From: an uncultured candidate division WWE3 bacterium | Lineage (GTDB): Bacteria; Patescibacteriota; WWE3; UBA101185; UBA10185 | Length of the DNA: 64,000 nucleotides | NCBI GenBank assembly: GCA_903879985.1 | Contig: CAIRNR010000006.1 | Span: forward strand, 32,505-96,504 | Direction: 5' to 3' | Part shown: one piece after another, positions 6,491 to 41,674 of the stretch | How positions within the stretch are numbered: position 1 is the first letter of the stretch | Layout of the letters: each line of letters begins with the position of its first letter | Notes under the pieces: generated by a model | The model's database searches: none | Told to the model about the DNA's origin: nothing | What the model saw: only the letters and a program-made list of their open reading frames with translations | Program-made: the position numbers and the translations under genes

Positions 6491-6580
6491 TAAAACAGTA
6501 ATAATCAGATACTCCCTAACACATTCTTCAGATAATTTAACTTCATATAAAGCCCAAAAGAAAAGGAATACAATTTAACT

Positions 6581-6778
6581 GTGAAAATAACCTTCCAAAT
6601 CGATCCTCAATACGACTACGATATGGTGTTACATATGTTGCGAGGAAAAGATTGGCAAAATAGGGCTAAACGCATGGGTTTAGATTTCTCTTTGGTTGAA
6701 AAAATTAATCAGGCAACCGGCACCGATATGTGTATTTTACTACAGACTAATCCTGCACAAAAAGGCAGCTATATCTAA
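6581..6778 (+). CDS. Hypothetical small protein
   Basis: ORF only; no recognisable motif. Confidence 0.2.
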   Translation: MKITFQIDPQYDYDMVLHMLRGKDWQNRAKRMGLDFSLVEKINQATGTDMCILLQTNPAQKGSYI

Positions 6779-6812
6779 TTATTTATACTAAAGATATCCG
6801 TTAACTCATGTT

Positions 6813-8754: not shown

Positions 8755-8759
8755 AAACT

Positions 8760-9686: not shown

Positions 9687-9759
9687 TTATGGTGGATAAC
9701 GATGTCAGCTTGCTTAATATAAGAAATTTCAGAAATCATTTGGTATATAATGAAGCAGC

Positions 9760-10899: not shown

Positions 10900-11024
10900 G
10901 AAACTTTAAAATTTAGTTACAACCATTTATAGATCCGTAAAACAGCATAATCAATGTAATTTTCTTATTCCAATGCTACCATTACTAGTATCGCTAATTG
11001 TTTTGTACACAATAGGATCACTTT

Positions 11025-25486: not shown

Positions 25487-27823
25487 ATGAAAATAAGATC
25501 CAAGATCGTAACAATATTTTTAGTTATATTTATAGTTATATTTGGTGTAGCAACAACAATTGAACTAAATTTTGCCAATAATCTTATATTTACCCAAATA
25601 TCTCAACACATAACTACCGCGTCAATTTGGCGATTTAATGCTCTAGAACTATACATAAAGGATCAAAAAGAAATGATTTCGTTAATGGGAGCAAGCACAG
25701 TTTTTAGAGATTTTTTAAACACAAACACTCAAGATAGGAATTATATATCCCAAAAAAACATAGCGGAGCAAAGATTGACCAGATCAATAAAAGAAACACC
25801 TCAAATTATTCAAATGTTTATCTTAAACACATCAGGCAAGGTAGTTGCATCCTCTAGTAAAGAGCATGAAGGAACCGATTTTTCCAATGACGATTTTTAT
25901 ACTCAAGCTCAAAACAAAACGTATTTTAAAGATATGTACAACTCAAAAGATGATCAAGCACTCGTATATGCGATTTCGACACCTATTAAAGATGATGCTA
26001 CAGGAAAAACCCTTGGCGTAGTTGTGGCAGAAATAGACACAACAGAATTGTACGCGTTACTACTAGACAGAAGTGGTATGGGTGATACAGGAGAAACCTA
26101 TATCGTAAATGGAAATGGCTTCTTTATTTCACCGTCTAGATTTTTGGACAACAGCATATTGTTAGCAAAGAAAAACACGACTCAAAACGTTACCGAATGC
26201 CTAAATAACAAAGATAATGATCCGAATATTGTTAAATTTTATACAGATTATCGTGGAATCCAAACAATAGGCACGCATAATTATATATCCGAAACCGGCT
26301 GGTGCTTGATTACAAAAATGGATAAATCTGAATATCTGGCTGAGAACACAAATTTATTAGAAATCGTTATTTTTATATTTTTGTGCGGCTTAACACTATT
26401 CACAATCTTTGGGTTCATTTTTTCAAAAAAGATCACTGAACCAATTGTTGCCCTTACCAAAGGCGTAAAAATAATCGAAGCAGGAGATTTAAATCACAAG
26501 GTAAGCATAAATACTAAAGATGAGACCGGAGAATTATCTGTAGCTTTTGATAATATGACTGATAAGTTTAGAGAAATTTACGACAATTTTGAAGATAAAA
26601 TTAAGCAAAGAACAAGTCAGCTGGAGCAGAGTAATAAAGAAATGTCCGAAAGAAATCACGATCTGGAAGAAACACGAAAAGCTATTCAAAATATCTTAGA
26701 TGATGTCGCTGCAGACAAAATTAAGCAAGATGTTTTACTAGCCGGAGTAGGTGAAGGCATTATAGCCACAGATAAATCTACGAACATAATTTTTGTAAAT
26801 AAAGCCGCCGAAGACGTTTTGGGATTTTCTTATCAGGAACTGATAGGAAGAAAATACAGCTCTGTTGTGAAATCGGTAGACTCCCACGGGGCAACTATAG
26901 AAGATAGTGATCGAATAATTAATAAGGTCCTAAAAACAGGTCTGTCTATTAAAACCGATGTACAGGCGGATTTATACTACGTAAAAAGAAATGGATCAAC
27001 ATTCCCTGTAGCAATTACTGTTACACCAATCATTCAAAAAAAAGAATTGACCGGAGAGATTTGCGTATTTAGAGACATTACCAAAGAAAAAAATATCGAC
27101 AGCATGAAAACAGAATTTATATCTCTAGCGTCACACCAACTTAGAACACCTTTATCGGCAATTAAATGGTACCTAGAAATGCTTATAGATGGCGATGCTG
27201 GTGAACTACAAAAAGAGCAAATGGAGTTTATAAACAACATTAACCTTTCCAACGAACGTATGATTGAACTGGTTAACTCCTTGCTAAACGTATCCAGAAT
27301 AGAGTCGGGAAGAATTATTATCGATCCACAACCAACCGATATAAAAGAGCTAATTAATAATACCGTATTTGAACTAACACAAAAATTCGAACAGAAAGAA
27401 ATAAGGCCACTATTAAGTATTAATCAAAATCTACCAGAAATTGATATTGATAAAAAACTTATCAGGCAAGTATTCTTGAATCTATTATCGAACGCTATTA
27501 AATACACGCCGACTGGCGGAGAAATTAGTATTTTTATATCAAAAGATAGCAAGGATTTAATTACCCAAATTACAGATAACGGTTATGGAATTCCAGCAAA
27601 AGATGCAGCCCGAGTATTCACAAAGTTTTACCGCGGAGAAAATATAATAAAAACCGAAACCGATGGTAACGGATTAGGATTATATCTAGTTAAAGCAATT
27701 GTTGAATCATCCGGGGGTAAAATATGGTACGAGAGTGAAGAAGGAAAGGGCACAACTTTTTGGTTTTCACTACCTTTGTCTGGTTCTACCAAAAAAGAAG
27801 GTTCTGTGTCAATTGACAGTTAG
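25487..27823 (+). CDS. Sensor histidine kinase (TM, extracytoplasmic Cache-like domain, HAMP, PAS, HisKA, HATPase_c)
   Basis: H-box SHQLRTPLSAI; N-box LLSNAIKYT; G-boxes DNGYGIP and GLGLYLVK; two TM segments flanking an extracytoplasmic domain of about 270 aa. Confidence 0.8.
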   Translation: MKIRSKIVTIFLVIFIVIFGVATTIELNFANNLIFTQISQHITTASIWRFNALELYIKDQKEMISLMGASTVFRDFLNTNTQDRNYISQKNIAEQRLTRSIKETPQIIQMFILNTSGKVVASSSKEHEGTDFSNDDFYTQAQNKTYFKDMYNSKDDQALVYAISTPIKDDATGKTLGVVVAEIDTTELYALLLDRSGMGDTGETYIVNGNGFFISPSRFLDNSILLAKKNTTQNVTECLNNKDNDPNIVKFYTDYRGIQTIGTHNYISETGWCLITKMDKSEYLAENTNLLEIVIFIFLCGLTLFTIFGFIFSKKITEPIVALTKGVKIIEAGDLNHKVSINTKDETGELSVAFDNMTDKFREIYDNFEDKIKQRTSQLEQSNKEMSERNHDLEETRKAIQNILDDVAADKIKQDVLLAGVGEGIIATDKSTNIIFVNKAAEDVLGFSYQELIGRKYSSVVKSVDSHGATIEDSDRIINKVLKTGLSIKTDVQADLYYVKRNGSTFPVAITVTPIIQKKELTGEICVFRDITKEKNIDSMKTEFISLASHQLRTPLSAIKWYLEMLIDGDAGELQKEQMEFINNINLSNERMIELVNSLLNVSRIESGRIIIDPQPTDIKELINNTVFELTQKFEQKEIRPLLSINQNLPEIDIDKKLIRQVFLNLLSNAIKYTPTGGEISIFISKDSKDLITQITDNGYGIPAKDAARVFTKFYRGENIIKTETDGNGLGLYLVKAIVESSGGKIWYESEEGKGTTFWFSLPLSGSTKKEGSVSIDS

Positions 27824-27840
27824 CGTCGTAGCAAGTTATT

Positions 27841-28230
27841 ATGGGATTAAATATGTCTATACAAATAATGGTAATTGAAGATGAAGAACTTTTATTAAAG
27901 GCTATTGTTAAAAAACTCACAATACATAACTTTGAAACTATTTCCTGTACAAGTGCAGAACAAGCATTGGACTACATGGAAAGTTTGGAAAAGAATCCAG
28001 ATGCAATTTGGCTTGATTACCACTTAAAAGGGATGAATGGCCTGGAGTTTATTGAAAAAGTTAAAGAAAATACTAAATGGGCAAATATTCCTATTGTTGT
28101 TGTAAGCAATTCTGCTGGAGATGAAACCGTAAAAACAGTATTAGCACTTGGCGCAGATAAATATTTATTAAAAGCAAAATATAAACTTGAAGACGTTATA
28201 GCCATCGTACAAGAATTAATTAAAAAGTAA
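27841..28230 (+). CDS. Stand-alone response-regulator receiver (REC) domain protein
   Basis: IMVIEDEE...WLDYHLKGMNG...IVVVSN; no output domain. The start may be ATG 27853. Confidence 0.7.
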   Translation: MGLNMSIQIMVIEDEELLLKAIVKKLTIHNFETISCTSAEQALDYMESLEKNPDAIWLDYHLKGMNGLEFIEKVKENTKWANIPIVVVSNSAGDETVKTVLALGADKYLLKAKYKLEDVIAIVQELIKK

Positions 28231-28234
28231 ATCT

Positions 28235-28597
28235 ATGAAAAAAATACTAATAGCCGAAGACGACAGATTTTTACAGAATATATATAGAGTGAAACTTACC
28301 AAAGAAGGCTTTGAAGTCCGTGTAGCAGGAGATGGCCAAGAATTTTTAGAAGAATTAAAAACTTTTACTCCCGATGTAATACTTTTGGATTTAGTCATGC
28401 CTGTGGTAGACGGATTTACTGTGCTACAAACTGTAAAATCGGACCCAAAGTTTAAAAATATCCCTGTTATTGTCACTTCAAACTTGGGACAAGACGAAGA
28501 TGTTAAAAAAGCGATGAAACTTGGAGCGAAAGATTACATTATAAAAAGCGACACAGCACTATCGGGTATAATCGAAAAAATAAAAGCTGATTTGTGA
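28235..28597 (+). CDS. Stand-alone response-regulator receiver (REC) domain protein
   Basis: KILIAEDD...ILLDLVMPVVDG...VIVTSN...K; no output domain. Confidence 0.75.
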   Translation: MKKILIAEDDRFLQNIYRVKLTKEGFEVRVAGDGQEFLEELKTFTPDVILLDLVMPVVDGFTVLQTVKSDPKFKNIPVIVTSNLGQDEDVKKAMKLGAKDYIIKSDTALSGIIEKIKADL

Positions 28598-28612
28598 TAA
28601 TATTTATTAATA

Positions 28613-30277
28613 ATGCCTGCCCCAATAGATCAACAACTTGTTAATTCCCTTATTGAATTAGAGCTTATTAAAAAAGAGCAACTGGATAAAGCTATCGCTG
28701 AAGCTAAAAGTAGTAACACTGATTTGGGCGTATATTTAGTTGAAAACGATTTTATCTCTGACGAAAACCTTGGCAAACTTATTGCCGATTTACTTAAATT
28801 TCCACTAATCAGGCTTGCGAATGTAAACATTCCGCCAAACATTATAAGCATTGTACCCGCAGAATTTGCCGAGAAATTTAAGATCATACCTTTTAAACGA
28901 GATCAAGGAAAACTTTTAGTTGCCACCACTAATCCAAACAACAAAGAGGTTATGGATAATCTTTCTAAGAAAAGTGGCTTGCCTGTTGAGGTTTATTACG
29001 CAACCGAACTTGATATTAAAGAAAACCTGCATTTGTTTAAAAAGAAATTGGAAACAGTTTACAAAGACTTAACCGTAAGTAATAAAGGAGCAAAGTTAGG
29101 AAAAATTCTCGACGACAACTTACCAATAGATAAAATTGTTATTACTCTTGTGGAATACGCCTATGATAATAGGGCATCAGATATTCATATAGAGCCTCGA
29201 GATCAGCATTCGGTAATCAGGTTTAGAATCGACGGCACACTTCACGACATGTTAACAATCCCAAAAACTACACATGACCAAATAATTAACAAAATAAAAG
29301 TGGATTCTAAGCTAAGAACGGATGAGCACATGAGTTCACAAGACGGAAAAATGCAGGAAAAAGTTAAGGAGGAAGAAATTGATATCAGAATTTCTATTAT
29401 GCCTGTAGTTGGGGGAGAAAACTGCGTTTTACGACTTTTAACGTCAACGTCACACCAATACGGATTGCAAGATTTAGGAATGAGCGAAAAAGATTTTAAA
29501 AAGGTCACAAATGGTTTTACAAAACCTTACGGAATGATTTTATCAACAGGACCTACTGGTTCAGGTAAAACTACATCCATGTATTCCATATTAAAAATAC
29601 TAAACACGAGGGAAGTGAATATAGCTACAATCGAAGATCCGGTTGAATATACTATCGAAGGAATTACCCAGATCCAAGTAAACAATAAAACCAACTTATC
29701 ATTTGCCGCCGGTTTACGTTCAATATTAAGACAGGACCCAAACATTATATATGTGGGAGAAATTCGAGATTCAGAAACTGCGGGAATAGCTATTAACTCC
29801 GCAATGACAGGACACTTAGTTTTATCCACACTACACACAAACGACGCCGCCACAGCTCTGCCACGACTTATTGATATGGATATAGAACCGTTTTTAATAG
29901 CTTCAACTGTTAACGTAATTGTTGCACAACGACTTGTTAGAAAAATTTGTGACTCCTGCAAGGTTTCTTACAGCATAACTCCAGCTGAAATAACGAAAAA
30001 ATATGGCTTAACCTTAAGTAAAACGACTGATACACTTTACATGGGAAAAGGATGTCCTGTTTGCAATAACACAGGATATGCCGACCGAATTGGTATTTTT
30101 GAAATTCTTGAAATCACGGACGCAATAAGAAAACTGATTACACAAAAGGCAACCGCAGACGAAATAGCACAACAAGCGGTAAAAGAGGGCATGACAACAA
30201 TGCTTAAAGACGGAATAGGTAAAGCCGTAATGGGAATTACAACGCTGGACGAAATATTAAGAGCAACTCGAGGATAA
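28613..30277 (+). CDS. pilB: Type IV pilus assembly ATPase PilB/GspE family
   Basis: N-terminal GSPII_E_N-like domain, Walker A GPTGSGKTT, Walker B/Asp box, and tetra-Cys CDSC...CPVC. Confidence 0.85.
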   Translation: MPAPIDQQLVNSLIELELIKKEQLDKAIAEAKSSNTDLGVYLVENDFISDENLGKLIADLLKFPLIRLANVNIPPNIISIVPAEFAEKFKIIPFKRDQGKLLVATTNPNNKEVMDNLSKKSGLPVEVYYATELDIKENLHLFKKKLETVYKDLTVSNKGAKLGKILDDNLPIDKIVITLVEYAYDNRASDIHIEPRDQHSVIRFRIDGTLHDMLTIPKTTHDQIINKIKVDSKLRTDEHMSSQDGKMQEKVKEEEIDIRISIMPVVGGENCVLRLLTSTSHQYGLQDLGMSEKDFKKVTNGFTKPYGMILSTGPTGSGKTTSMYSILKILNTREVNIATIEDPVEYTIEGITQIQVNNKTNLSFAAGLRSILRQDPNIIYVGEIRDSETAGIAINSAMTGHLVLSTLHTNDAATALPRLIDMDIEPFLIASTVNVIVAQRLVRKICDSCKVSYSITPAEITKKYGLTLSKTTDTLYMGKGCPVCNNTGYADRIGIFEILEITDAIRKLITQKATADEIAQQAVKEGMTTMLKDGIGKAVMGITTLDEILRATRG

Positions 30278-30290
30278 TTGAGGATAATTT

Positions 30291-31334
30291 ATGAGTTTTA
30301 ATACAGACAAACTTTTATTTACAAAACATTTAGCAATCATGCTTAAGGCAGGTATTCCTATTGCCGAGGCAATTGAAACTGTATCAGATCAAAGCGCCAA
30401 TTCGGGATTCAAAAAAATATTAACCAGCATTTATAAAGATGTTTCAGAGGGACGCACATTACAAACCGCTTTGTCACGATATCCAAAAGTTTTTGATGCT
30501 ATTTACATAAACCTTGTTAGAACCGGTGAAGAATCGGGCGATCTCGACGAAAGTTTAAAATTTTTAACAGAACAACTAGAACGTGACGGAAAATTCAGGC
30601 AAAAAGTAATAGCAGCATCAATGTATCCTTCAATTGTATTAATCACAGCCTTTATTGTTAGCGCGCAAATCAGCTTATATGTACTTCCAAAACTTACCGA
30701 TTTGTTTCAATCAATGGACGTGGATCTTCCGATTACAACAAAAATATTGTTATGGTTTGCAGACTTAATGAAATACCATGGATATGAAATTTTCGGCGGG
30801 ATCTTTGCACTTGGAGTACTTTTTAGGTTAACGTTGTTAAACAAAAAAATCAGATATGCTTGGCAATCTCTCATACTCAAACTTCCAACAATTGGAAACT
30901 TTAATAGAAACATAGAAATGGCAATAATATGCAGAAATATCGGAACAATGCTACGAAGTGGTGTTCCAATAGCTAAAACTCTAGATACATTAAGCTTATC
31001 AACATCAAACTTAATTTTTAGAGACTACCTTAGAGATCTTTTAAAATCCGTTACCATGGGAACAACATTTTCTTCGGAACTGCGTAACAAAAAATATAAA
31101 TACATTCCAAAAATTGCTGTAAAGATGATTGGGGTAGGGGAGAAAACCGGAAAATTGGATGAGTCATTTATTTATCTAGGAGACTATTTTGAAGATGAGG
31201 TAGATAACCTAATGAAAAATCTTTCAACAATTTTGGAACCGGCACTTTTACTGGTAATTGGTTTTTTCGTTGCATTTTTAGCACTCGCAATTATTACACC
31301 AATTTATCAATTTACCGGTAGTATACATAACTAA
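30291..31334 (+). CDS. pilC: Type IV pilus platform protein PilC/GspF family
   Basis: Two T2SSF-like repeats (LVRTGEESGDLDESL; MIGVGEKTGKLDESF) and 3 TM segments. Confidence 0.75.
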   Translation: MSFNTDKLLFTKHLAIMLKAGIPIAEAIETVSDQSANSGFKKILTSIYKDVSEGRTLQTALSRYPKVFDAIYINLVRTGEESGDLDESLKFLTEQLERDGKFRQKVIAASMYPSIVLITAFIVSAQISLYVLPKLTDLFQSMDVDLPITTKILLWFADLMKYHGYEIFGGIFALGVLFRLTLLNKKIRYAWQSLILKLPTIGNFNRNIEMAIICRNIGTMLRSGVPIAKTLDTLSLSTSNLIFRDYLRDLLKSVTMGTTFSSELRNKKYKYIPKIAVKMIGVGEKTGKLDESFIYLGDYFEDEVDNLMKNLSTILEPALLLVIGFFVAFLALAIITPIYQFTGSIHN

Positions 31335-31335
31335 A

Positions 31336-31761
31336 ATGAAAGGTTTTACATTATCAGAAATGTTATTGGTTGTTACCATTATCATAATTCTGAGTCTTAT
31401 TGGAACTCCACTTTTCAGCAGACTTATAATGCAAACCTCCGTAACACGTACGGCAGAACAAATAGTAGCCACGATGAGAAAAGCTCAAAGCTATGCTATG
31501 TCCGATAAACAAAATAGTAACTGGGGAGTAACTTACACTGGAGGTAATATGGTACTTTTCTCAGGCACTACGTATGCTACTAGAACCGCAGCCTTTGATG
31601 AAACAACAGCATTAAACCCAAATATAGCGATAACCGGATTCACGGAAACTGTATTTTTAAAACCCACAGGTAATGTTGCTGCACCTGTAACCATAAATTT
31701 GACCGAACCTGAAAGATCCGAAACAATTACAGTAAACACACAGGGAGTTGTAAGTCGATGA
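31336..31761 (+). CDS. Pseudopilin / minor pilin (prepilin-type N-terminal cleavage/methylation domain)
   Basis: MKG|FTLSEMLLVVTIIIIL: class III signal with G-1, F+1, E+5. Confidence 0.65.
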   Translation: MKGFTLSEMLLVVTIIIILSLIGTPLFSRLIMQTSVTRTAEQIVATMRKAQSYAMSDKQNSNWGVTYTGGNMVLFSGTTYATRTAAFDETTALNPNIAITGFTETVFLKPTGNVAAPVTINLTEPERSETITVNTQGVVSR

Positions 31762-33206
31762 CGATTGTAAAAGGTAAAAAAAATGGATTCTCAGTAATAG
31801 AAGTCATTTTAGCTGCAGGACTATTTGTAATGTTTGCCTCCGGAATAATGACGTTAACTGTGGATGGTTTGGGTATGGGCCGATTAGCAATAGAGCAATT
31901 ACAAGCAAGTGAATTTAATTCTGAGGGTAAAGAAGCTGTAAGGTCTATAAAAAATGAATCGTACGCGGCACTAACAGCAGGATCAAACTACGGCGTAGCT
32001 TCTTCAACTAATGGGTGGGTACTTAAAGCAGGTTCCGATAATTTTGACAAATATTATAGAGCCATATCAATCTCAACGGTACAAAGAGACGCTAACGGAA
32101 ATATAGTTGCATCTGGAGGTACCGTAGATGCAAACACAATGCGTGCGGATATCACGACTACATGGAATTATTCACCGACAAGAAGTAATTCTGTATCATT
32201 CAATAATTATTTTACAAACTGGGAATTGAAATTTATAGGAAATTATAGTTCGCCTTTGCAAGACGCCATTGTAAATTTAACCGGAAGCACAGGAGGATAC
32301 GATATAGCAGCAAGTGGTAACTTTGCGTACGTCACCGTGGTAGCGGCATCATCTAACTTTGCTGTAATAAATATCACAAATTCATCATCGCCTTCCATTT
32401 CATCAAGCATCAACTTACCAGGTAAACCTGCAGGAATTAATCATGCTATGACCGGAAACTATGCATATGTGGCAAATTCGGCCACAGCTAATGAACTAGA
32501 AGTAGTAAACGTGACCACACCAACTGCAGCCATTTTATCGGGAAGTTACAATGCTGCAGGTAATAATGCAGGTACCGATGTCTTTGTCCAAGGAACAAGG
32601 GCGTACCTTACAAGGGCAGGTTCAACACCATCACCTAATTTTATTGTATTAAATATAACTTCACCAACTTCACCAGCGCTAATGGGATCATTAACATTGG
32701 CCGGCAGTGCTGTGGCGTTATACGTATCAGGAAGTTATGCATTTGTGGCAAGCTCAACTGCACCGCAAGGATTACAAGTAGTTAATATAACCTCACCGTC
32801 ATCACCAACGCTGGCAGGGTCATTGAGTTTAACTGGAACAGCACCCAGTACAGCCATAGATGTTTACGGAAATACTGCTTTTGTGGGTAGAAGGGATGGG
32901 TCAATCGCGGTCATAAATATTACAGCGCCTTCGTCACCAACACTTATATCAACATACTCAACAGGGACTGTAGCTGTAACAGGAATAGACACGGATCCGA
33001 CGGGAACATATTTATTTGCGTCCACAGCAACCACAACGGCAGGAATAAAAATAATAGATATATCCACACTCACAGCACTGGTTCCTTATGGAAGTTATAC
33101 AACCACGTCGGCTAACAATAATATCTTTTATCATGCTGCAAAAGATAGGCTACTGGTAGCAAATTCCAACTCAGCACAAGAAGTAATTATTTTGAAACCG
33201 CAGTAG
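31758..33206 (+). CDS. Prepilin-like protein fused to LVIVD-repeat beta-propeller (putative tip/minor pilin adhesin)
   Basis: N-terminus KKNG|FSVIEVILAAGLFV. About 6 repeats of ...YA(Y/F)VA....L.VVNIT.PS.P.L.GS... (LVIVD-type). Confidence 0.55.
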   Translation: MTIVKGKKNGFSVIEVILAAGLFVMFASGIMTLTVDGLGMGRLAIEQLQASEFNSEGKEAVRSIKNESYAALTAGSNYGVASSTNGWVLKAGSDNFDKYYRAISISTVQRDANGNIVASGGTVDANTMRADITTTWNYSPTRSNSVSFNNYFTNWELKFIGNYSSPLQDAIVNLTGSTGGYDIAASGNFAYVTVVAASSNFAVINITNSSSPSISSSINLPGKPAGINHAMTGNYAYVANSATANELEVVNVTTPTAAILSGSYNAAGNNAGTDVFVQGTRAYLTRAGSTPSPNFIVLNITSPTSPALMGSLTLAGSAVALYVSGSYAFVASSTAPQGLQVVNITSPSSPTLAGSLSLTGTAPSTAIDVYGNTAFVGRRDGSIAVINITAPSSPTLISTYSTGTVAVTGIDTDPTGTYLFASTATTTAGIKIIDISTLTALVPYGSYTTTSANNNIFYHAAKDRLLVANSNSAQEVIILKPQ

Positions 33207-33226
33207 TGCAGTAATTTGAATATTAT

Positions 33227-33760
33227 ATGAAAAATGTTAAAAACGGAATTACATACATAGAATTGTTGTTATATATAGCGTTGATTGGTGTTTTAATTTC
33301 AGCTGTAATACCTTTTACCTTAGCCGTAATTCAAAATGGTGAAAAGAGTAATACTCAAAGAGAGGTTACAAATGCAGCATACGTTGTTACCGAAAAAATA
33401 AAAGCTCAAATACGTAACGGTAGAACAATTAACTCAGGATCATCTAACTTTGACGTAGATTTGGCGTCAAGTTCGGCAAACCAAATTTCAATCGGAGGTT
33501 CCGCACCAAACGATCCGATTTTAATTAACGTTACACCTCAAGGAATTGCTCAAATAAAGATCGGGGCAAATGCGGCGGTTGCATTAAATCCAGCGAGTAC
33601 ACATGTTTCCAGTTTGGTATTTAAAAATAATTCGCCCACAGATTTAAGATCGAAAAACCTGTCTTTTATACTAACAATGACTTCCTCTTACGCAGGAAGC
33701 AGTCCGTACTATACTTACAGTATTACAGTACGAAGTGCAGCGGAACTCCGGAGTAACTAA
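33227..33760 (+). CDS. Pseudopilin / minor pilin
   Basis: VKNG|ITYIELLLYIALIGVL prepilin N-terminus. Confidence 0.55.
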   Translation: MKNVKNGITYIELLLYIALIGVLISAVIPFTLAVIQNGEKSNTQREVTNAAYVVTEKIKAQIRNGRTINSGSSNFDVDLASSSANQISIGGSAPNDPILINVTPQGIAQIKIGANAAVALNPASTHVSSLVFKNNSPTDLRSKNLSFILTMTSSYAGSSPYYTYSITVRSAAELRSN

Positions 33761-34176
33761 TGAAAAATACAAAACTAATAGTACAAAAACACAAAGAAGC
33801 GCGTAAAAATGGATTTGCGGCAATGCTAACTGTTTTAATATTGTCGGCGGTTATTTTAATTATCGTGGGAACAATTTCACTATTATCAATAGGGCAGGGA
33901 CAGGCAATGCTGGCAAACACAAATGGAGCTACCGAACGGGACCAAGCTTATAGCTGCGCCGAAGAAGCGTTAGCACGCTTAAGAGTTGCTGCTGGTTATA
34001 CAGGAGGAACTATAACATTTCCTAATGGAACGTCATGTGCAGTTACAGTGACACATGTGTTAAGAGTTTATACGCTTACAGTTACTACAAACGATTCAAC
34101 CAAATACGTAACAACACTTAAGATAATAGTTACAAGAGCAAATGCAATTACAATTTCATCTTGGATAGAAATCTGA
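33760..34176 (+). CDS. Pseudopilin-like protein (no Glu at +5)
   Basis: RKNG|FAAMLTVLILSAVILIIV; hydrophobic N-terminal helix but no E5. Confidence 0.45.
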   Translation: MKNTKLIVQKHKEARKNGFAAMLTVLILSAVILIIVGTISLLSIGQGQAMLANTNGATERDQAYSCAEEALARLRVAAGYTGGTITFPNGTSCAVTVTHVLRVYTLTVTTNDSTKYVTTLKIIVTRANAITISSWIEI

Positions 34177-34183
34177 CCTAAAA

Positions 34184-34212
34184 TTGACAATCATATATTT
34201 TAGACATAGTAT
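34184..34212 (+). promoter_or_regulatory. Sigma70-like promoter of pilin 1 (TTGACA-17-TAGTAT)
   Basis: The hexamers were read directly from the sequence. A conserved AGTAGATATTTAAGGA 5'-UTR follows, shared with pilin 3. Confidence 0.4.
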
Positions 34213-34243
34213 TTATGGAGTAGATATTTAAGGAATTATTAAA

Positions 34244-34708
34244 ATGAAACTGCCTAAAAATGAGAAAGCTTTTACACTTATTGAACTTTTACTCGTAGTC
34301 GCAATTATTGCCACGTTAGCCGTAGTCGTATTTGTTGCTTTGAATCCTGCACAAAGATTAAAGGATTCCAAGGATGCCAGAAGAACTTCTGATATAGACA
34401 CAATACTGTCAGCCGTTCATGAATACATAATTGATAATAAAGGTGCATTACCAACATCTTCACCACAAGCAGAAGTCCAGCTAGGTACATCAGCGTCAGG
34501 TTGTGCAATATCAACTGGTGGTTGTTCTGCAGTAGCTGCAGCTTGCTATGATATGTCTACACTGTTAAATAAATACCTAAAATCTATGCCTATAGATCCA
34601 ACAGGAACTGCCGCAGGTACAAAGTACACAATCACAGTTGATGCAAATAACATTGTAACCGTTAAAGCTTGCGCGGCTGACACAGGTACAATTGTAGTTT
34701 CTAGATAA
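34244..34708 (+). CDS. pilA: Type IV major pilin, paralog 1
   Basis: MKLPKNEKA|FTLIELLLVVAIIATLAVVVFVALNPAQRLKD. Ala rather than Gly at -1. The C-terminal half carries 4 Cys. Confidence 0.7.
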   Translation: MKLPKNEKAFTLIELLLVVAIIATLAVVVFVALNPAQRLKDSKDARRTSDIDTILSAVHEYIIDNKGALPTSSPQAEVQLGTSASGCAISTGGCSAVAAACYDMSTLLNKYLKSMPIDPTGTAAGTKYTITVDANNIVTVKACAADTGTIVVSR

Positions 34709-34736
34709 ATTTAGAAATCTAAACTCGAATACATTT

Positions 34737-34767
34737 AAGGGTGCTGGGACAACAAACCAGCGCCCTT
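34737..34767 (+). terminator. Hairpin downstream of pilin 1 (weak T-tract)
   Basis: AAGGGTGCTGG...CCAGCGCCCTT with one G-U pair. Confidence 0.3.
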
Positions 34768-34849
34768 AATTATTCTCAGAAAAAATAAAGTTGACACTTG
34801 TTTTATACAGATCTATCCTTAACATAGTAAAAAAATTTTTCTATTTTAG

Positions 34850-35314
34850 ATGAAACTGCCCAATAACCAAAAAGCCTTTACACTTATAGAACTTCTTTTA
34901 GTCGTGGCAGTAATTGCTACCCTTGCCGTTATAGTATTTCTTGCGTTAAACCCAGCACAAAGACTGAAAGATGCAAAAGACGCTAGAAGAACTACTGACG
35001 TTGACCAGATTTTATCAGCAATACATGAATATGTTATTGATACAAAAGGTACATTTCCTGTAAGTTCGCCACAGGCCGAGGTACAACTTGGTACTGCAAC
35101 TTCTGGGTGCGGTATTGTTACCGGAGGATGCAATGCGCTATCAACAGCATGCACCGACTTATCCGTAAAACTCGTAAAATACCTAGACGTCATGCCAATA
35201 GATCCAACCGGCACACAATATGTTACAAAATACACTGTAATAGTTGATGCTAACAATATTGTAACCGTTAGAGCCTGCGCAGCCGATAATGGAAACATAT
35301 CCGCCTCAAGATAA
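34850..35314 (+). CDS. Type IV major pilin, paralog 2 (most divergent)
   Basis: MKLPNNQKA|FTLIELLLVVAVIATLAVIVFLALNPAQRLKD. Own TTGACA promoter at 34791. Confidence 0.7.
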   Translation: MKLPNNQKAFTLIELLLVVAVIATLAVIVFLALNPAQRLKDAKDARRTTDVDQILSAIHEYVIDTKGTFPVSSPQAEVQLGTATSGCGIVTGGCNALSTACTDLSVKLVKYLDVMPIDPTGTQYVTKYTVIVDANNIVTVRACAADNGNISASR

Positions 35315-35349
35315 ATACAAATATTAACTCACTTCCTACTGGATTTGAA

Positions 35350-35378
35350 TTGACATCTATCCCTTTAAGCCCTAGACT
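35350..35378 (+). promoter_or_regulatory. Sigma70-like promoter of pilin 3 (TTGACA-17-TAGACT)
   Basis: The hexamers were read directly from the sequence. Conserved 5'-UTR AGTAGATATTTTTTAAGGAG. Confidence 0.35.
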
Positions 35379-35410
35379 TTATGCAGTAGATATTTTTTAA
35401 GGAGAAAATA

Positions 35411-35875
35411 ATGAAACTGCCCAAAAATGAAAAAGCTTTTACATTAATTGAGCTTTTGTTAGTTGTCGCAATTATTGCAACGTTAGCCGTAGTAGTTTTC
35501 GTGGCTTTAAATCCAGCACAAAGACTTAAGGATTCTAAAGACGCAAGAAGAACCTCAGACGTAGATACTATATTGTCTGCAGTTCACGAATATATAATTG
35601 ATAACAAGGGTGTGTTACCAACCACATCACCACTTAACGAAATCCAGCTCGGTACATCCGCAGTAGGTTGTGCAATAGGTACAGGAACCTGCTCAGCCAA
35701 CGGAACCGCTTGTTTAGATTTAACGTCCACTTTAAACAAATACCTAAAATCTATACCTATCGATCCAACCGGAGTAGTAGGTGCTACAAAGTACACAATG
35801 GCTGTTGATTCCAACAACATTGTAACTGTCAAAGCCTGCGCTGCAGATACGTCAACAATATCAGCGTCTAGATAA
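35411..35875 (+). CDS. Type IV major pilin, paralog 3
   Basis: The N-terminal 70 aa are nearly identical to paralog 1. The central/C-terminal region diverges. The C-terminal NNIVTVKACAADT motif is conserved. Confidence 0.7.
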   Translation: MKLPKNEKAFTLIELLLVVAIIATLAVVVFVALNPAQRLKDSKDARRTSDVDTILSAVHEYIIDNKGVLPTTSPLNEIQLGTSAVGCAIGTGTCSANGTACLDLTSTLNKYLKSIPIDPTGVVGATKYTMAVDSNNIVTVKACAADTSTISASR

Positions 35876-35890
35876 TAAAGGAGAAAAAAT

Positions 35891-36667
35891 TTGTTTAATA
35901 GTGCCCTCGTCATTTTGTATGTTAAATCCCAGTCCCTGTGCGTTTACAAACAGGGGCTGGGTTTGTTAGCGAAGCTAGAACTCACCGAAGATTTGGTAGA
36001 ACATTTAGATATCATTAATCAAGATTTATTTTCAAAAACTGTAGCAGAATTTTTAATCAAACTTAAACTTAAAGGAAAAGAGGTTGGGATATTATTGGGA
36101 GATGATTGTATTTTCAGAAAAACTTTTGCTTCTATTACGCAACAAACTCAAGTAACTCAAACCGATATAGATGCTTTTTTGGAAACAGTTCCTTTAGAAA
36201 GAACAGATATTTTAAATAACGTTATCGAGGTTAGGGGAGAGACCAATATTTTTGCCACGAGTAAGATCTTTATTAATTCAATAAAAACAGCGTTATCTGC
36301 TAACAATATTTCTATAAATTATACTGCTCCTGTATGTGTAGTTTTACCCGATCCAAACAACATCATATTTGATAAAGATCAATTTAAAGAAATAAAAAGA
36401 CAAGAAGAAATTATTCATAGGGCGAGTTTTTTAGGGGAGCAAACGCAGAAAAAGAGACCTAACCCATTTGTAGTAGGCATATTTATATGTGTAGCACTAG
36501 CAGGAATAATATATGCAAGTGAAATGTATATTATTTATGCAAACAAACACCAAGCGTTATTAAAAATAAGACCAATACTGGAGCAAGTAACAGAAACGTC
36601 ACAGTCATCTCAAACGCCACAAACTTCCGAAACCAAAGAAACAAGCCCATCCGTAGACGTTAAATAG
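35891..36667 (+). CDS. Putative pilus-assembly membrane protein (PilM/PilN-like?) with a C-terminal TM and an S/T/Q-rich tail
   Basis: Position after the pilins. One TM (FVVGIFICVALAGIIYA), then SQSSQTPQTSETKETSPS. No diagnostic motif. Confidence 0.3.
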   Translation: MFNSALVILYVKSQSLCVYKQGLGLLAKLELTEDLVEHLDIINQDLFSKTVAEFLIKLKLKGKEVGILLGDDCIFRKTFASITQQTQVTQTDIDAFLETVPLERTDILNNVIEVRGETNIFATSKIFINSIKTALSANNISINYTAPVCVVLPDPNNIIFDKDQFKEIKRQEEIIHRASFLGEQTQKKRPNPFVVGIFICVALAGIIYASEMYIIYANKHQALLKIRPILEQVTETSQSSQTPQTSETKETSPSVDVK

Positions 36668-36717
36668 AAACACATATGCCATTGGCATAAATCGAGGTTT
36701 TACTTTACAATTTACGC

Positions 36718-37416
36718 ATGAACAAAAAAACTCAAGTTACATTACACTCATATTCGCTATTAATAATATTAGGTGTCGTAATTGCTTTTTCTTTCGGTGC
36801 ATGGTTCTTCATGGCTCTAAAAAGTCGCAACGAGGGGCAGTCTTCTAAAAGCAACAATAGTCCAGTGGTTGTCCAAACAGATACAAATTCTTTAACAACT
36901 AAGGACTTAACCTCAGCATCAACACCTGAATCCTCACCAACGCCACCAGCCGTTAAAACCAACGTAAGATCCGACGGAAAATTAACAACAGAAGATGGTT
37001 TTGCAATACGCTTTGACGGCACACCTTATACAAATGTTAGCGCACCAACTTCTGCAGGAACTACAAGTACTGAATATGCCGTCTCATCCGGTGGTAACGA
37101 CTACAGCGTAATAGTTTTGGTATATAACGCAATTCCACAGGCTAAAATTACAAAAACCGATTTGGATTCAATGCTAGAAAGCTCGGTGCTAGCCAACGGC
37201 TTTGAAACGGTGAAAAACTCAATTTTCTATTCAACAATGGGAGATGGCTCATTAGACTTTTTTGTATACAACAGCGCAAATAAAGACTATATGGACGGTA
37301 GAGTTGTAACCAAAAGTAGGGGATCACAATTTTATGTTTACATAGTCTCGGCTGTTTCAACAGAACAGGATCCTGTAGCCGTGACAAACTTCGTGAATTC
37401 GTTTGAGCTTCTGTAA
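36718..37416 (+). CDS. Membrane-anchored hypothetical protein (N-terminal TM, S/T-rich linker, globular domain)
   Basis: TM LLIILGVVIAFSFGAWFFMAL; low-complexity SSKSNNSP...TPESSPTPP. Confidence 0.35.
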   Translation: MNKKTQVTLHSYSLLIILGVVIAFSFGAWFFMALKSRNEGQSSKSNNSPVVVQTDTNSLTTKDLTSASTPESSPTPPAVKTNVRSDGKLTTEDGFAIRFDGTPYTNVSAPTSAGTTSTEYAVSSGGNDYSVIVLVYNAIPQAKITKTDLDSMLESSVLANGFETVKNSIFYSTMGDGSLDFFVYNSANKDYMDGRVVTKSRGSQFYVYIVSAVSTEQDPVAVTNFVNSFELL

Positions 37417-37435
37417 ACCAGAATAATAGAATAAT

Positions 37436-38983
37436 ATGAAGCGAACACAACTTTTAATTATATTACTAGTAACTGCTGTTCTATTTGCTATTCTTTTCCC
37501 TATTTCATCGAGAATTAATTTTTATCAAAACGATGACTGGATATATTACCGAACCGTAAAAGATTTTATGCATGGCTATTTTATAATAAATGGCTACATT
37601 GAAACTTCTTTTTACACTCAGGGGTTTTTAGGTTTGGGTTTCGCAAAACTTTTTGGACTTCAACATCTACCTGTACTTACGCTAATATTTTCGGTTCTTA
37701 ACTTTGGCATTTTCACTTTAATTTTAAATAAGTTTTATGTTAAAAAAACGCTGGATGCCATTTTAATTGGCCTGATTTTCTTTTTATCGCCATTGCACAT
37801 TTACGCAACCTTAGGATTTATGACCGACAATTATTTTTTGTTTTTTGCACTAGTGGCGATATACCTTATGGAAGAATTCCTTCACACTAAAAAGCAAATT
37901 TATCTAATACCTTTTTTTGTTGTAATTCTGCTGGGCTTTTTTGTCCGCCAATTGGAAATAGCAGTTCCTGTTACATTAGTCGCGTATTTGTTTATTACAA
38001 AAGAATTTAAACAGGCGCTAAAAGTAGGAATTCCAACCGCAATTTTACTAATATACTATTTCTTTTTTTACGGAAAAACCGAAGCAATGGCACAAAATCA
38101 GAACTTTGTGATTTCAAACCTTTTAGATTTTCAATATACTTTTGACACCATTTATGTCTCTTTATTTTATGCGGTATGTTTTATTTTACCCATCACAATC
38201 TTTTTACCATTTTATAATAGAGAAAAATTAAAAAGACCAGTTTACATAGTGCTATTTATAGCGGCAGTTATAGGTGTTTATTTTGCAATAACATTTTTTT
38301 ATAAACCTACCAGATTTTACATGCCTGAAATGTTCTATTTAAAAAACACAGTTACAAAAACAGGCTTTTTTACAAGCGAAAGTTTGGGAAAACACGCAAC
38401 TATAATAGGGGATAACACTTTGTATTTTTACTGGCGACTAATAACCAATATTACTTTGGCAATAACGATTGTGTGTCTGCTGCTAACCAAAAAAAAGCTT
38501 CTAAATTACTACACGGTTTTTGGTGTTTTATACATTGGTTTAATGTGTGTTATGCAAGATTTGTACGATAGATATTTTTTAATATTAATTCCCGTAATCA
38601 TACTGGCAATCATAAACGCGTCTTCACAATTTAAGCTTAATTGGTGGATACGCACAGTCTTTATTGTGTTTATCGCGACCATGACCTTTTATTTATACAA
38701 CATAAGCATGGACTTTTTACTTACAAACAATAGTGTGTGGCAAAAATCAAATGATTTAGTCGTCACAACCAACGTTAAACCAACACTTATTGGCGCAGGA
38801 TCAGGATGGCAAAGAACGTATTTTAATCCAACAGCAAGATATAAATATGTGTTTATGTTTAAGAGTCTTCCCGAAACGCCCTCAATGCAGATTACATTTC
38901 AACCTTACGATTCTTATAATATCTGGTACCCATTTGATTTTTATTCTAGCCATAATATATATGTATATAAGAGGCGTCTTTAA
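37436..38983 (+). CDS. Polytopic membrane protein, GT-C-like glycosyltransferase candidate
   Basis: At least 12 TM segments, with an acidic motif QNDDWIYY in the first loop after TM1. Confidence 0.45.
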   Translation: MKRTQLLIILLVTAVLFAILFPISSRINFYQNDDWIYYRTVKDFMHGYFIINGYIETSFYTQGFLGLGFAKLFGLQHLPVLTLIFSVLNFGIFTLILNKFYVKKTLDAILIGLIFFLSPLHIYATLGFMTDNYFLFFALVAIYLMEEFLHTKKQIYLIPFFVVILLGFFVRQLEIAVPVTLVAYLFITKEFKQALKVGIPTAILLIYYFFFYGKTEAMAQNQNFVISNLLDFQYTFDTIYVSLFYAVCFILPITIFLPFYNREKLKRPVYIVLFIAAVIGVYFAITFFYKPTRFYMPEMFYLKNTVTKTGFFTSESLGKHATIIGDNTLYFYWRLITNITLAITIVCLLLTKKKLLNYYTVFGVLYIGLMCVMQDLYDRYFLILIPVIILAIINASSQFKLNWWIRTVFIVFIATMTFYLYNISMDFLLTNNSVWQKSNDLVVTTNVKPTLIGAGSGWQRTYFNPTARYKYVFMFKSLPETPSMQITFQPYDSYNIWYPFDFYSSHNIYVYKRRL

Positions 38984-39006
38984 TAGTACAATACCCAACA
39001 TACTGT

Positions 39007-40128
39007 ATGAATACTAAATTGAGTTCACTTACAATTTTTTTTCCTTTTTACAACGACTCGGGAACAGTAGAAGAATCTATAGATTTGGCTTACAAAATAG
39101 GCCGTGAATATACAGATGATTTGGAAGTTATAGCAATCCACGGCGGTCCATCAAAAGACGATACATTCGACAAAATTAAAGAAATGCAAAAAAAATATCC
39201 CAAACTTGTTATTGTAGACAAAACTGATAACACCGAAGGCTATGCTGTAATAAAAAACGGCTTTAACGCAGCAACAAAAGATTGGGTGTTTTATACCGAC
39301 GGCGACCGACAATATCACATGGAAAACGATTTTCAAAAGCTTGTAAAAGCACAGTTTAAAACAGATGCCGATATTGTGAACGGTTATAAAAAAGAGCGTG
39401 GTGACAACGTTGTACGACTATTTCTTGGAAACGCGTACGCAACAATAAGCTCGCTTTTATTTGAACTTCCAATCCGCGACACCGACTGCGATTTCCGACT
39501 TATGCGCATGTCAAAAATGAAAAAAATAACATTGGAAAGCCACGACGCATCAATATTACCCGAGCTTATTAAAAAACTTCAAATCGCCGGTGCCAAATTT
39601 ACAGAAGTGCCTGTTAGTCATTTCGAAAGAGTTTACGGAAAATCTAATTACACAGCTTTTAGTTTGCTCAAAGAGAAAGTGCTTGGCGACTTTAAGTTGT
39701 ACATGAAAATGAGAAAAATAAAAAAAGGTGGCGGTTACCGCATAATTTCTTTTGGAATGATCGGCGTTGTAAGCGTTGTTTTACAAACCGTAAGTTTTAA
39801 CTTTTTACTTTTGTTTTCGGCAATACAACCTGCGGCTGCCACAGTTTTGTCAGATCAACTTGTTATTGTGATTTCGTTTATCTTAAATAACTCACTAACA
39901 TTTCGAAACAAGCTGGCACTTCAAGCATCATTGCTAAAAAAATTCGTTCAGTTTTATATTACAGTTATTGTGTCAACGCTTGTCCAAGCTCTAATTGTAT
40001 ATATAGGAACTTCAATGTTTGGAAATAATATTATCGTTTCAAATGTTTCGTTTGTAATTGGCTTGGGAATCGGCTTTTTGTGGAACTACACTATTCAAAG
40101 TAGAATCATTTGGAAAAAGCAGGGTTAA
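39007..40128 (+). CDS. GT2 polyprenyl-phosphate glycosyltransferase (DPM/ArnC/GtrB-like) fused to a C-terminal GtrA-like 4-TM domain
   Basis: FFPFYNDSGTVEESI, a DxD-like YTDGDRQYH, and a C-terminal run of TM helices. Confidence 0.7.
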   Translation: MNTKLSSLTIFFPFYNDSGTVEESIDLAYKIGREYTDDLEVIAIHGGPSKDDTFDKIKEMQKKYPKLVIVDKTDNTEGYAVIKNGFNAATKDWVFYTDGDRQYHMENDFQKLVKAQFKTDADIVNGYKKERGDNVVRLFLGNAYATISSLLFELPIRDTDCDFRLMRMSKMKKITLESHDASILPELIKKLQIAGAKFTEVPVSHFERVYGKSNYTAFSLLKEKVLGDFKLYMKMRKIKKGGGYRIISFGMIGVVSVVLQTVSFNFLLLFSAIQPAAATVLSDQLVIVISFILNNSLTFRNKLALQASLLKKFVQFYITVIVSTLVQALIVYIGTSMFGNNIIVSNVSFVIGLGIGFLWNYTIQSRIIWKKQG

Positions 40129-40171
40129 AAAGCTCCGTGTTTACGTTAGCACCTAAGTTAACGCGGCGACG

Positions 40172-41674
40172 CTAGGCTAAAGCTTCAAACTTATTCATCA
40201 CCTCAACCACTTTATAAATTTCAGCCTCAGTATTCGAATACGAAATAGGCAAACTCAAAATTGTTTCGTGAATCTTTTCGGCTATTGGATAATCTCCTGT
40301 TAAAATTCCTTGCATAGCTTTTTGTTTATGAGGAGGAAGCGGGTAGTGAATATCGGTTTTTATACCGTTATCCAGCAAATATTTTTTAAGTTCATCTCGG
40401 CGCTCGTGACGAATCGCGTAAATATGATAAACATCAAAGTAATCGTCATCAACAATAGGTTTTATAAATTTATCACTTAGATTTTTATTATAAATATCAG
40501 CTAGTTTTCGTTTATGGGCATTGATTTTGTCTAAACTCTTTAACTTAACCGACAAAAATCCTGCTTGTACTTCATCGAGTCTGGAATTTATTCCAACATA
40601 ATCGTTGTAATACTTTTTAAATGAACCATAGTTGCGCAAAGCCATAACTTTGTCGTAATACATATAATTTTTGCAAATAACGGCACCCGCATCACCTAAG
40701 GCACCAAGATTTTTTGTTGGGTAAAAACTGAACGCACCAAAATCACCAAATGTTCCGGTTTTAACGCCTTTGTACATAGCACCATGGGATTGCGCGCAGT
40801 CTTCGATAACAACTAAACCGTTATCGTTTGCAATCTTTAAAATCGGCGTCATATCGCAGGATTTGCCGTACAGGTGCACGGGCATTATAGCTTTTGTTTT
40901 TTTGGTTATTTTCTCAGCAATTTTTGTCGGGTCGATGTTGTAGGTAGTTATATCGGGCTCAACTAAAACAGGTTTTAGGCCGGCATTAAGTATGGCTAAA
41001 ATAGTAGCAATATACGTATTGGAAGGAACTATAACTTCGCTGTCAGCAGGCATGTCTAAATTTTTTAATGCTAACAACGAAAGTGTAAGTGCGTCCAAAC
41101 CGTTAGCTACACCTAGACATTTTCCTGATTGCAAATAGTTTTGAAATTCTTGTTCAAAGTTTTTTACGTTATTACCTAAAACAAAATATCCGGAGTTTAA
41201 AACTTCATCAAACTTTGCTTTGTAATCATTCATAAATTCTTTGTTAACCTTGTATAAGTTTTCGTATTCAATAAAGTCCGGGTATTCGTCGTCAATGTAA
41301 TCTTGTAAATTATAAAGTTCGGATGATAGAACTAATAAAACAGATGTTTCATCCAAACCAACCATTGTGTGCCAATCAGCAGGTTCTAAAAGTAAACAAT
41401 CATCAGGAGAACTTAAAACGTATGTTTCTTTTTTAACACCATTATTAGTGTAAATGCTGTAAGAACCGGACGTGCAAATTAAAGCTTGTCGTGTTTTTAT
41501 ATGTCTATGCCCACCTCGTTCAACGTGATTACTTCCGTAAATATAAAAAACTCTTTTTACTTCAAAGGGAATATCTTTGTTATTTTCTAAAATGGATAAA
41601 TATCCTCGTGCAACGTCTGCTGCTTCGCCAGTTCTTTTTGTTGTGTACGTTCTTATCTTTATAAGCTTAGCCAT
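40172..41674 (-). CDS. Bifunctional FdtA/WxcM-like cupin (sugar 3,4-ketoisomerase) fused to a DegT/DnrJ/EryC1/StrS PLP-dependent sugar aminotransferase
   Basis: N-terminal cupin [23 protein letters not shown]...; C-terminal aminotransferase with the PLP-lysine context [17 protein letters not shown]. Confidence 0.7.

Follow-up and report, generated by a model that had tools for sequence, protein, structure and literature searches.

Three Tandem Type IV Pilin Genes in an Uncultured Candidate Division WWE3 Bacterium: A Probable Lineage-Specific Triplication of the Pilus Major Subunit

Introduction

What does a bacterium of the Patescibacteria, or Candidate Phyla Radiation (CPR), do with three adjacent genes for one kind of pilus subunit? 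The question is raised by a 64-kb stretch of DNA (hereafter the window; G+C content 37%) from an uncultured candidate division WWE3 bacterium (assembly GCA_903879985.1, contig CAIRNR010000006.1, positions 32,505–96,504), in which three type IV pilin genes, here called pil1, pil2 and pil3, follow one another downstream of a pilus assembly locus. Type IV pili are the main known means by which ultrasmall CPR bacteria find and hold their hosts. A preliminary description of the locus drew attention to the conserved ends and hypervariable middle of the three products, to the individual promoters of the genes and to an Ala residue at the cleavage site, and likened the set to an antigenic or functional-variation repertoire. 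The analysis presented below points, with a probability that we put at roughly 0.8, to a lineage-specific triplication of the gene for the type IV pilus major subunit, the copies of which are intact, separately promoted, old and under selection.

Three Intact Prepilin Genes in the Place of One

The three genes are head-to-tail open reading frames (ORFs) on the + strand, each of exactly 154 codons: pil1 at 34244–34708, pil2 at 34850–35314 and pil3 at 35411–35875. Their products share the N-terminus MKLP(K/N)N(E/Q)KA-FTLIELLLVVA(I/V)IATLAV, a class III (prepilin) signal peptide in which a hydrophilic leader of nine residues ending in Ala (MKLPKNEKA in pil1 and pil3, MKLPNNQKA in pil2) is followed by a hydrophobic helix. 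Phe+1, Glu+5 and about 21 hydrophobic residues (FTLIELLLVVAIIATLAVVVFVAL), as expected of type IV pilins, are found in pil1, pil2 and pil3, and mature pil1, 145 aa long, starts with FTLIELL. All three proteins score above the cut-offs of PF07963 N_methyl (IPR012902; 30–31 bits vs. 21.2) and TIGR02532 (23–26 bits vs. 16.3). The three tandem pilin genes previously placed at 34244, 34850 and 35411 are thus borne out by exact ORFs and by profile matches.

An AlphaFold2 (AF2) model of pil1 built from 100 family members predicts helices at residues 12–33 and 35–64 followed by a small four-strand sheet (mean predicted local distance difference test score, pLDDT, 85.4), which would correspond to the lollipop fold of type IV pilins. 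A Foldseek search gave no match to solved structures at E ≤ 0.001; the top match in the PDB, and the sole one with a pilin-type fold, was the pseudopilin PulG, and it was weak (E 0.2, probability 0.85). Sequence similarity to solved pilins (geopilin, PilA, PilE1) is confined to the N-terminal helix.

The array is genetically linked to genes for pilus assembly, which lie 4–6 kb upstream on the same strand and encode a PilB-type assembly ATPase (28613–30277; NCBIfam TIGR02538, 520 bits) and a PilC/GspF-type platform protein (30291–31334; NCBIfam TIGR02120, 277 bits), both scores being below the equivalog cut-offs. Four minor-pilin-like genes on the + strand fill the space in between (31336–34176; ORFs starting at 31336, 31758, 33227 and 33760). 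The same order is found in related genomes, where the major pilin, usually single, comes after pilB, pilC and four minor pilins, and the pil array occupies exactly this slot.

The family to which the three proteins belong is large. With pil1 as query, more than 1000 homologs were retrieved, almost all of them 150–175 aa long and 60–70% identical over the full length, and those that carry a name are from Patescibacteria. An exhaustive search of 1.84 billion cluster representatives yielded 34 clusters at E ≤ 1e-30 and 1725 at E ≤ 1e-10. Related loci come from metagenome-assembled genomes (MAGs) of Roizmanbacteria, Daviesbacteria and the 'Microgenomates group'; ten of them were obtained by a scan of a genome collection, which did not return the source genome itself. 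A metagenome scan with the family alignment returned mostly generic FTLIELL pilins and one full-length relative, and was unusable for copy-number statistics. Four of the related loci (L008, L009, L012 and L015) belong to GTDB representative MAGs titled 'uncultured Gammaproteobacteria' or 'Pseudomonadales', which are probably placeholder or wrong labels.

Fourteen of 16 related loci contain a single major pilin of this family and the remaining two (L008 and L011) a tandem pair; only the window has three. Tandem duplication therefore recurs in the group, and the three copies of the window are at its high end. The assignment of pil1–3 as major pilins is indirect; it draws on their consensus promoters, small size, content of Gly, Ala, Ser and Thr (GAST, 34–39%) and location where relatives have their one pilin of the family. 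The array resembles the major pilin loci of Patescibacteria/Microgenomates in protein family, syntenic slot, sequence motifs and TTGACA promoter, and differs from them in having three copies instead of mostly one, and Ala instead of the Gly found at −1 in 92–94% of family members.

Old Paralogs under Purifying Selection

Protein identity amounts to 82% between pil1 and pil3, 74% between pil1 and pil2 and 70% between pil2 and pil3, in alignments free of insertions and deletions in which all four Cys residues are kept. Nucleotide identity is just 66–75%, and regional Nei–Gojobori estimates indicate that synonymous sites are saturated between the copies (proportion of synonymous differences, pS, 0.61–0.75). 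In codons 10–67 of pil1 and pil3, pS reaches 0.69 at a proportion of nonsynonymous differences (pN) of only 0.03, and the ratio of nonsynonymous to synonymous divergence (dN/dS) is 0.016, compared with 0.28 in codons 68–126. Among all copies dN/dS ranges from 0.02 to 0.05 in the helix and from 0.11 to 0.28 in the middle, and is about 0.1 overall, with the reservation that synonymous saturation renders these values approximate. Since pS is saturated even where the pil1 and pil3 proteins are nearly identical, the identity of their ends is due to purifying selection and not to recent copying. By these substitution patterns, the copies are old paralogs maintained by purifying selection.

The near-identity of copies 1 and 3 at the N-terminus, noted in the preliminary description, is reflected in the low pN. 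Two other statements made there went too far. Copy 2 is not divergent throughout, as it is 74% and 70% identical to the other two, equal to them in length and endowed with the same four Cys residues and family motifs; and the middle region is not hypervariable, with about half of positions 68–126 differing among the three copies and a dN/dS of 0.11–0.28 there.

The closest database relatives of each copy are the other two copies, and the next homologs are at most 69% identical. The three copies also have the leader MKLPxNxKA in common, although no other part of the family proteins varies as much as the leader (entropy 2.87). The mutual best matches and the common leader indicate that the triplication is lineage-specific and that Ala at −1 was present in the ancestral copy.

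The distribution of differences along the proteins is that of the family. Across 100 family sequences 20 columns are invariant, and the consensus motifs FTLIELL..VIAII, NPAQRLKDA.DARR, GC.I.TGGC...AAC, KYL...P.DP and NNIVTVKAC can be recognised. The 51 positions that vary among the paralogs are those that vary in the family (mean entropy 1.35 vs. 0.73; Mann–Whitney p 3e-8). Judged by these alignments, a constraint profile of 'conserved ends, variable middle' belongs to the Patescibacteria pilin family as a whole.

Promoters, Leader Block and Transcript Ends

Each gene is preceded by its own promoter-like site, strong and of the sigma-70 type, on the + strand: P1, TTGACA-17-TAGTAT (34184–34212), 60 nt upstream of the pil1 ATG; P2, TTGACA-17-TATCCT (34791–34819), 59 nt upstream of the pil2 ATG; and P3, TTGACA-17-TAGACT (35350–35378), 61 nt upstream of the pil3 ATG. 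The pattern TTGACA-N17-TAnnnT has exactly three matches on both strands of the window, all of them 59–61 nt upstream of a pilin ATG, where base composition predicts about 0.6 matches per strand. P1, P2 and P3 were also the three best matches in a consensus promoter scan, with P1 ranked first. The individual TTGACA-17-TA...T promoters proposed earlier are therefore supported. Upstream of the major pilin of relatives, a TTGACA-16/18-xAnnnT-like site was present in 9 of the 17 genes examined. Such a promoter being common in this position, each duplicate has simply retained the usual promoter of the family.

The regions upstream of pil1 and pil3 are related to each other, as the preliminary description had it in speaking of a shared 5′ untranslated region (UTR). 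A 48-nt stretch is 75% identical and includes a leader block identical in 17 of 18 nt, TTTATG[G/C]AGTAGATATTT, which reads TTTATGGAGTAGATATTT at 34212–34229 and TTTATGCAGTAGATATTT at 35378–35395 (both +) and is followed by the Shine–Dalgarno sequences AAGGA and AAGGAG, respectively. Its first base is the last one of the −10 hexamer, and it extends over the discriminator and the probable start of transcription into the early 5′ UTR. AGTAGATATTT was found just twice in the window, and the block is unchanged in a divergent strain (locus L001). The pil2 gene has neither the leader block nor an AAGGA(G) ribosome-binding site, and the block is also missing from related genomes. Although the genes are saturated at synonymous sites, the block has been conserved. 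Within it lies a mini-ORF of three codons (ATG-GAG/CAG-TAG), and the block may represent a constraint on the transcription start and discriminator or the site of a regulator.

A GC-rich, terminator-like hairpin of 13 bp follows pil1 (34735–34769, +; −28.6 kcal/mol, z = −6.8 vs. shuffled sequences); it has no classical T-run and was consequently missed by a simple terminator scan. No hairpin was detected 3′ of pil2 in the fold scan. The ORF at 35891–36667, directly 3′ of the pil3 stop codon, starts with TTG after an AAAGGAG Shine–Dalgarno sequence and contains a terminator- or attenuator-like, GC-rich hairpin of 12 bp followed by TTTGTT (35928–35967, +). Located about 40 nt into the ORF, this hairpin might act as an attenuator, stopping most of the pilin transcripts and allowing some readthrough. 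Transcription would probably proceed from P1 through pil1 to its hairpin, and from P2 through pil2 into P3, pil3 and the second hairpin.

One Mixed Filament or Alternative Filaments

How might three major subunits be used? In the scheme that we favour, all three pilins are made, cleaved after Ala−1 by the prepilin peptidase of the genome, as precedents from other bacteria would allow, and presumably polymerised by the one PilB/PilC machinery. The most likely outcome, by analogy, would be mixed filaments. The differences among the copies are concentrated in what should be the outward-facing loop and sheet region, so that the surface chemistry of the pilus would be diversified around a constant assembly interface.

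The nearest parallel comes from Streptococcus sanguinis, in which PilE1 and PilE2 are encoded in tandem, are 78% identical and form heteropolymeric filaments in a ratio of about 4:3 without being functionally equivalent (PMC6497953). In both organisms, neither of which has an outer membrane, adjacent, closely related, full-length major pilin genes lie in a pil locus (three genes, 70–82% identical, in the window), the assembly helix is identical, and the differences fall in the globular part. The globular domain is in both cases nearer to PulG than to classical type IVa pilins, here very weakly (Foldseek E 0.2). Unlike the streptococcal pair, the WWE3 array has three copies, Ala instead of Gly at −1, four Cys residues and a consensus promoter for each gene, and its sequence relationship to PilE1 and PilE2 is confined to the N-terminal helix.

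The main competitor of co-assembly is alternative use, in which the promoters would answer different signals and give rise at different times to homopolymeric pili that differ in surface type, for instance to suit particular hosts or surfaces or to evade pilus-specific phages. The own promoter of each gene, the insulation of pil1 by a strong hairpin and the leader block common to pil1 and pil3 and absent from pil2 all fit this idea, as do the more acidic globular part of pil2 (isoelectric point 4.9 vs. 6.2) and the presence of a Cache-PAS histidine kinase and two receiver proteins directly upstream of pilB. However, the three core promoters are near-identical consensus sequences, no regulator binding sites were identified at them, and the missing hairpin between pil2 and pil3 suggests that these two genes are co-transcribed. 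It is the separate promoters, the pil1 hairpin and the adjacent two-component genes that keep alternative use alive; we regard it as possible, with the odds somewhat against it. On the strength of the S. sanguinis precedent, a mixed filament seems slightly more likely than condition-specific alternative filaments.

Several points weigh against the scheme of three co-assembled, selected major pilins. The pil2 gene, with no Shine–Dalgarno sequence and with the weakest −10 hexamer, may be a minor contributor. Processing after Ala−1 is assumed on precedent, and a prepilin peptidase (peptidase A24) candidate was not recognised by eye among the window ORF translations, which were not Pfam-scanned. 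The exposure of the variable sites on the pilus surface is deduced from general pilin architecture, with a best Foldseek E value of 0.2, and the selection estimates carry the imprecision of saturated synonymous sites.

Multiple tandem major pilins are already known, and no new mechanism is revealed by this locus. The retention of three separately promoted, selected major subunits in a reduced genome nevertheless suggests that diversity of the pilus surface matters to this bacterium, and the pil array is a natural place to seek heteropolymeric pili outside Streptococcus.

What Kind of Filament

The three genes could also encode the major subunits of a short fibre, Com-like (competence-type) or pseudopilus-like, that serves in DNA uptake or secretion. 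Among named families the best sequence matches are GspG, ComGC, ComGD and ComGE, the top fold match is PulG, streptococcal ComG pilins typically have Ala at −1 (PMC7212644), and no PilT was seen in the window. On the other hand, the named matches are far below the family cut-offs: pil1–3 reach 26 bits with GspG (TIGR01710; cut-off 88.85), with only the N-terminal 62–65 residues aligned, and 20–22 bits with ComGC (NF040999; cut-off 75). The mature length of 145 aa far exceeds the 93–94 aa of ComGC (PMC7212644), and the ATPase is best matched as a type IV-A PilB. With streptococcal ComG pilins the WWE3 proteins share Ala−1 followed by FTL(I/V)E and a monoderm-type cell; they differ in fold and length from ComGC, which is shorter by about 40%, and in that Ala−1 and Gly−1 are mixed in one locus here. 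The pili of Patescibacteria studied experimentally serve host binding and twitching (PMC11623550). We consider a Com-like fibre unlikely, and this alternative concerns the function of the filament, not the nature of the three genes.

The role of the filament is likely to be host binding and twitching, by analogy with cultivated Saccharibacteria, in which type IV pili mediate both (PMC11623550). Like the window, the genome of the saccharibacterium Nanosynbacter lyticus TM7x encodes more than one major pilin (PilA1 and PilA2) together with large adhesin-like domains in minor pilins. The TM7x major pilins belong to separate loci and machineries and build two distinct filaments (PMC11623550), as opposed to the three tandem paralogs and one machinery found here.

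Ala at the −1 Position

In line with the preliminary description, ORF translations give Ala at −1 in pil1, pil2 and pil3, and Gly in the four pilin-like ORFs that precede them (G|F, G|F, G|I and G|F). Of the 120 nearest homologs seven carry Ala−1, three of these being the copies of the window, and nearly all others have Gly; in a set of 138 diverse cluster representatives in which the motif could be recognised, the residue is Gly in 127 and Ala in 11. Such counts do not make Ala−1 a lineage norm, which the preliminary description had named among the outcomes that would refute it. Nor is the residue an oddity. Three unrelated members with Ala−1 (loci L098, L100 and L101) are each the sole major pilin of a syntenic locus, and in L100 and L101, both from Microgenomates, an Ala−1 major pilin is accompanied by Gly−1 minor pilins, the same split as in the window. 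Since Ala−1 and Gly−1 are mixed within loci of the clade, its peptidases must handle both residues.

Precedents elsewhere agree with this. In P. aeruginosa, as Strom and Lory reportedly found in 1991, Ala is the only substitution at −1 that still permits cleavage. PilD 'cleaves at a glycine or alanine' (PMC3244431), the −1 residue of class III leaders is described as Gly or Ala (PMC7212644, PMC3244431), and the leaders of all five streptococcal ComG pilins end in Ala−1 and are processed by ComC (PMC7212644). The presence of Ala−1 is thus explained by its recurrence in the family, by the mixed loci and by the acceptance of Ala in the literature. As the homologs stand, Ala−1 is a minority state here, neither the lineage norm nor an anomaly that needs a special peptidase.

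The split between Ala in the major pilins and Gly in the minor ones might itself be functional, with different processing ordering the assembly of the filament; the abundant subunits would then be cleaved more slowly or later than the priming minor pilins, or by a second peptidase. The recurrence of the split in L100 and L101 is compatible with this idea, to which we give little credence; an obligate heteropolymer of three subunits, a separate idea, is equally doubtful.

The Microgenomates locus L098 (2086–5516) presents another arrangement. Ala−1 is found there in the major pilin and in at least two minor pilins (VKA|LTLIELM and FKA|ISVIEIL), possibly in a third that has no Glu5 (MQKA|YAAIT), and one minor pilin has Gly. 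Ala−1 can therefore spread across a whole pilin set.

Redundant Copies or an Antigenic Repertoire

Could one working major pilin be accompanied by two redundant copies that drift and decay? The missing Shine–Dalgarno sequence and weaker −10 hexamer of pil2, and the sufficiency of a single copy for most relatives, might be taken that way. Yet none of the assemblies has a damaged copy, overall dN/dS is about 0.1 even though synonymous divergence is saturated, the four Cys residues and the family-invariant residues are kept, and genes without a Shine–Dalgarno sequence are common in this locus. Redundancy is accordingly very unlikely.

The nucleotide sequences and their variation among assemblies bear on the last alternative, recombination between the copies. 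Exact nucleotide matches between pairs of copies reach 13–17 nt at most, and runs of identical third codon positions are no longer than in permutations (p 0.65–0.97). By these comparisons the pil copies are shown not to swap sequence among themselves. Silent, promoterless, 5′-truncated donor cassettes are absent from the array, every copy being complete with promoter, ATG, leader and full reading frame. There is no G-quadruplex (G4) motif (G3+N1–7 ×4) on either strand of 27001–38000, and no invertible elements or inverted repeats around the promoters or variable homopolymers were found at the pil array; the one A7 tract, in the pil2 leader, is invariant across all assemblies.

The exact pil1 protein was present on more than 20 contigs, and it was possible to read seven of the loci, which derive from different samples and assemblers. 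The three-gene array is the same in six of them, and the seventh (L003) ends within the array; in all, at least seven independent assemblies carry the array. Five of the seven differ from the window by 1–3 bases over 1.9 kb, and the other two, L001 and L003, represent a strain 96–97% identical to it. Single-nucleotide polymorphisms (SNPs) of this strain are clustered in pil1 codons 11–78 (all synonymous), pil2 codons 12–56 and pil3 codons 127–148, all of them conserved portions of the genes, and the variable middles of the pilins are unchanged between strains. We considered the clusters as imports from paralogs and rejected this origin, as their alleles are mostly unlike those of the other copies and equally dense clusters occur throughout the 8.5-kb locus. 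Clusters spread along the locus point to general strain mosaicism or consensus mixing, not to variation specific to the pilins. The pattern seen among strains is the opposite of that expected of an antigenic-variation locus.

The patchiness of the divergence of L001 is an observation in its own right. Over 30244–38708 of the window it mostly amounts to 0–2 SNPs per 200 bp and rises to 16–35 per 200 bp in a few blocks, the dense ones lying at 30244–30443, 33844–34243 and 37644–37843, which suggests frequent homologous recombination between strains or a chimeric consensus assembly.

Neisseria-type antigenic variation, in which the copies would exchange variable segments by gene conversion, has in its favour the tandem homologs with ends more conserved than the middle and is, by the sequence evidence just given (full-length copies each with promoter and start codon, synonymous saturation with no common tract above 17 nt, no G4 motif, strain SNPs mostly free of the alleles of other copies, invariant middles), essentially refuted. 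Neisseria pilE/pilS and the WWE3 array are alike in having several pilin-related sequences per genome with variable central and C-terminal regions; silent truncated cassettes, recombination tracts, a G4 element and mosaic alleles are not found here. Of the 'antigenic or functional-variation repertoire' envisaged at the outset, a functional repertoire of subunits is still plausible, and the antigenic, recombining part is unsupported. The analysis hence removes the recombination-cassette reading of the locus, and shows Ala−1 to be recurrent and tolerated in this pilin family.

Neighbouring Genes

The four minor-pilin-like genes encode a GspH/ComGD-like protein, a protein of 482 aa, a ComGE-like protein and one without Glu5. 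The 482-aa protein (31758–33206) has four LVIVD repeats (PF08309, E 5e-25), a beta-propeller-type domain, and syntenic homologs of 476–638 aa in relatives. The TM7x minor pilin PilX2 carries a beta-propeller (PMC11623550), and by analogy the LVIVD protein is a candidate tip adhesin. A possible fourth pilin at 62633–63097, also of 154 aa, was rejected for want of a class III motif.

Immediately before pilB and on its strand (25487–28597) are genes for a histidine kinase of 778 aa with Cache, HAMP and PAS domains and for two stand-alone receiver-domain proteins of 129 and 120 aa with no output domain. Together with the kinase, they may exert sensory control over the pilus.

Three sugar-related genes are located 3′ of the pilus locus (37436–41674). 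One encodes a membrane protein of 515 aa (PMT_2, GT-C-like), another a glycosyltransferase of 373 aa (GT2+GtrA) and the third, located on the minus strand, an FdtA/WxcM-DegT aminotransferase fusion of 500 aa. In P. aeruginosa the gene for TfpW adjoins pilA, and by analogy with TfpW the trio could be a module for glycosylation of the pilins or of the cell surface. Relatives have DUF2079, DUF4153 or GT2 membrane proteins in this position.

Far from the pil array, a run of ORFs at 5969–12140, 3′ of a tRNA-Val gene (5755–5831), may, as judged by eye, represent a defence or mobile island that has integrated at the tRNA. Two of its ORFs, at 8760–9686 and 9760–10899, have similar C-termini ('DILA..K.....VVELKK...SD..VGQ..RYMG'), and the ORF at 11025–12140 appears NERD-like by eye.

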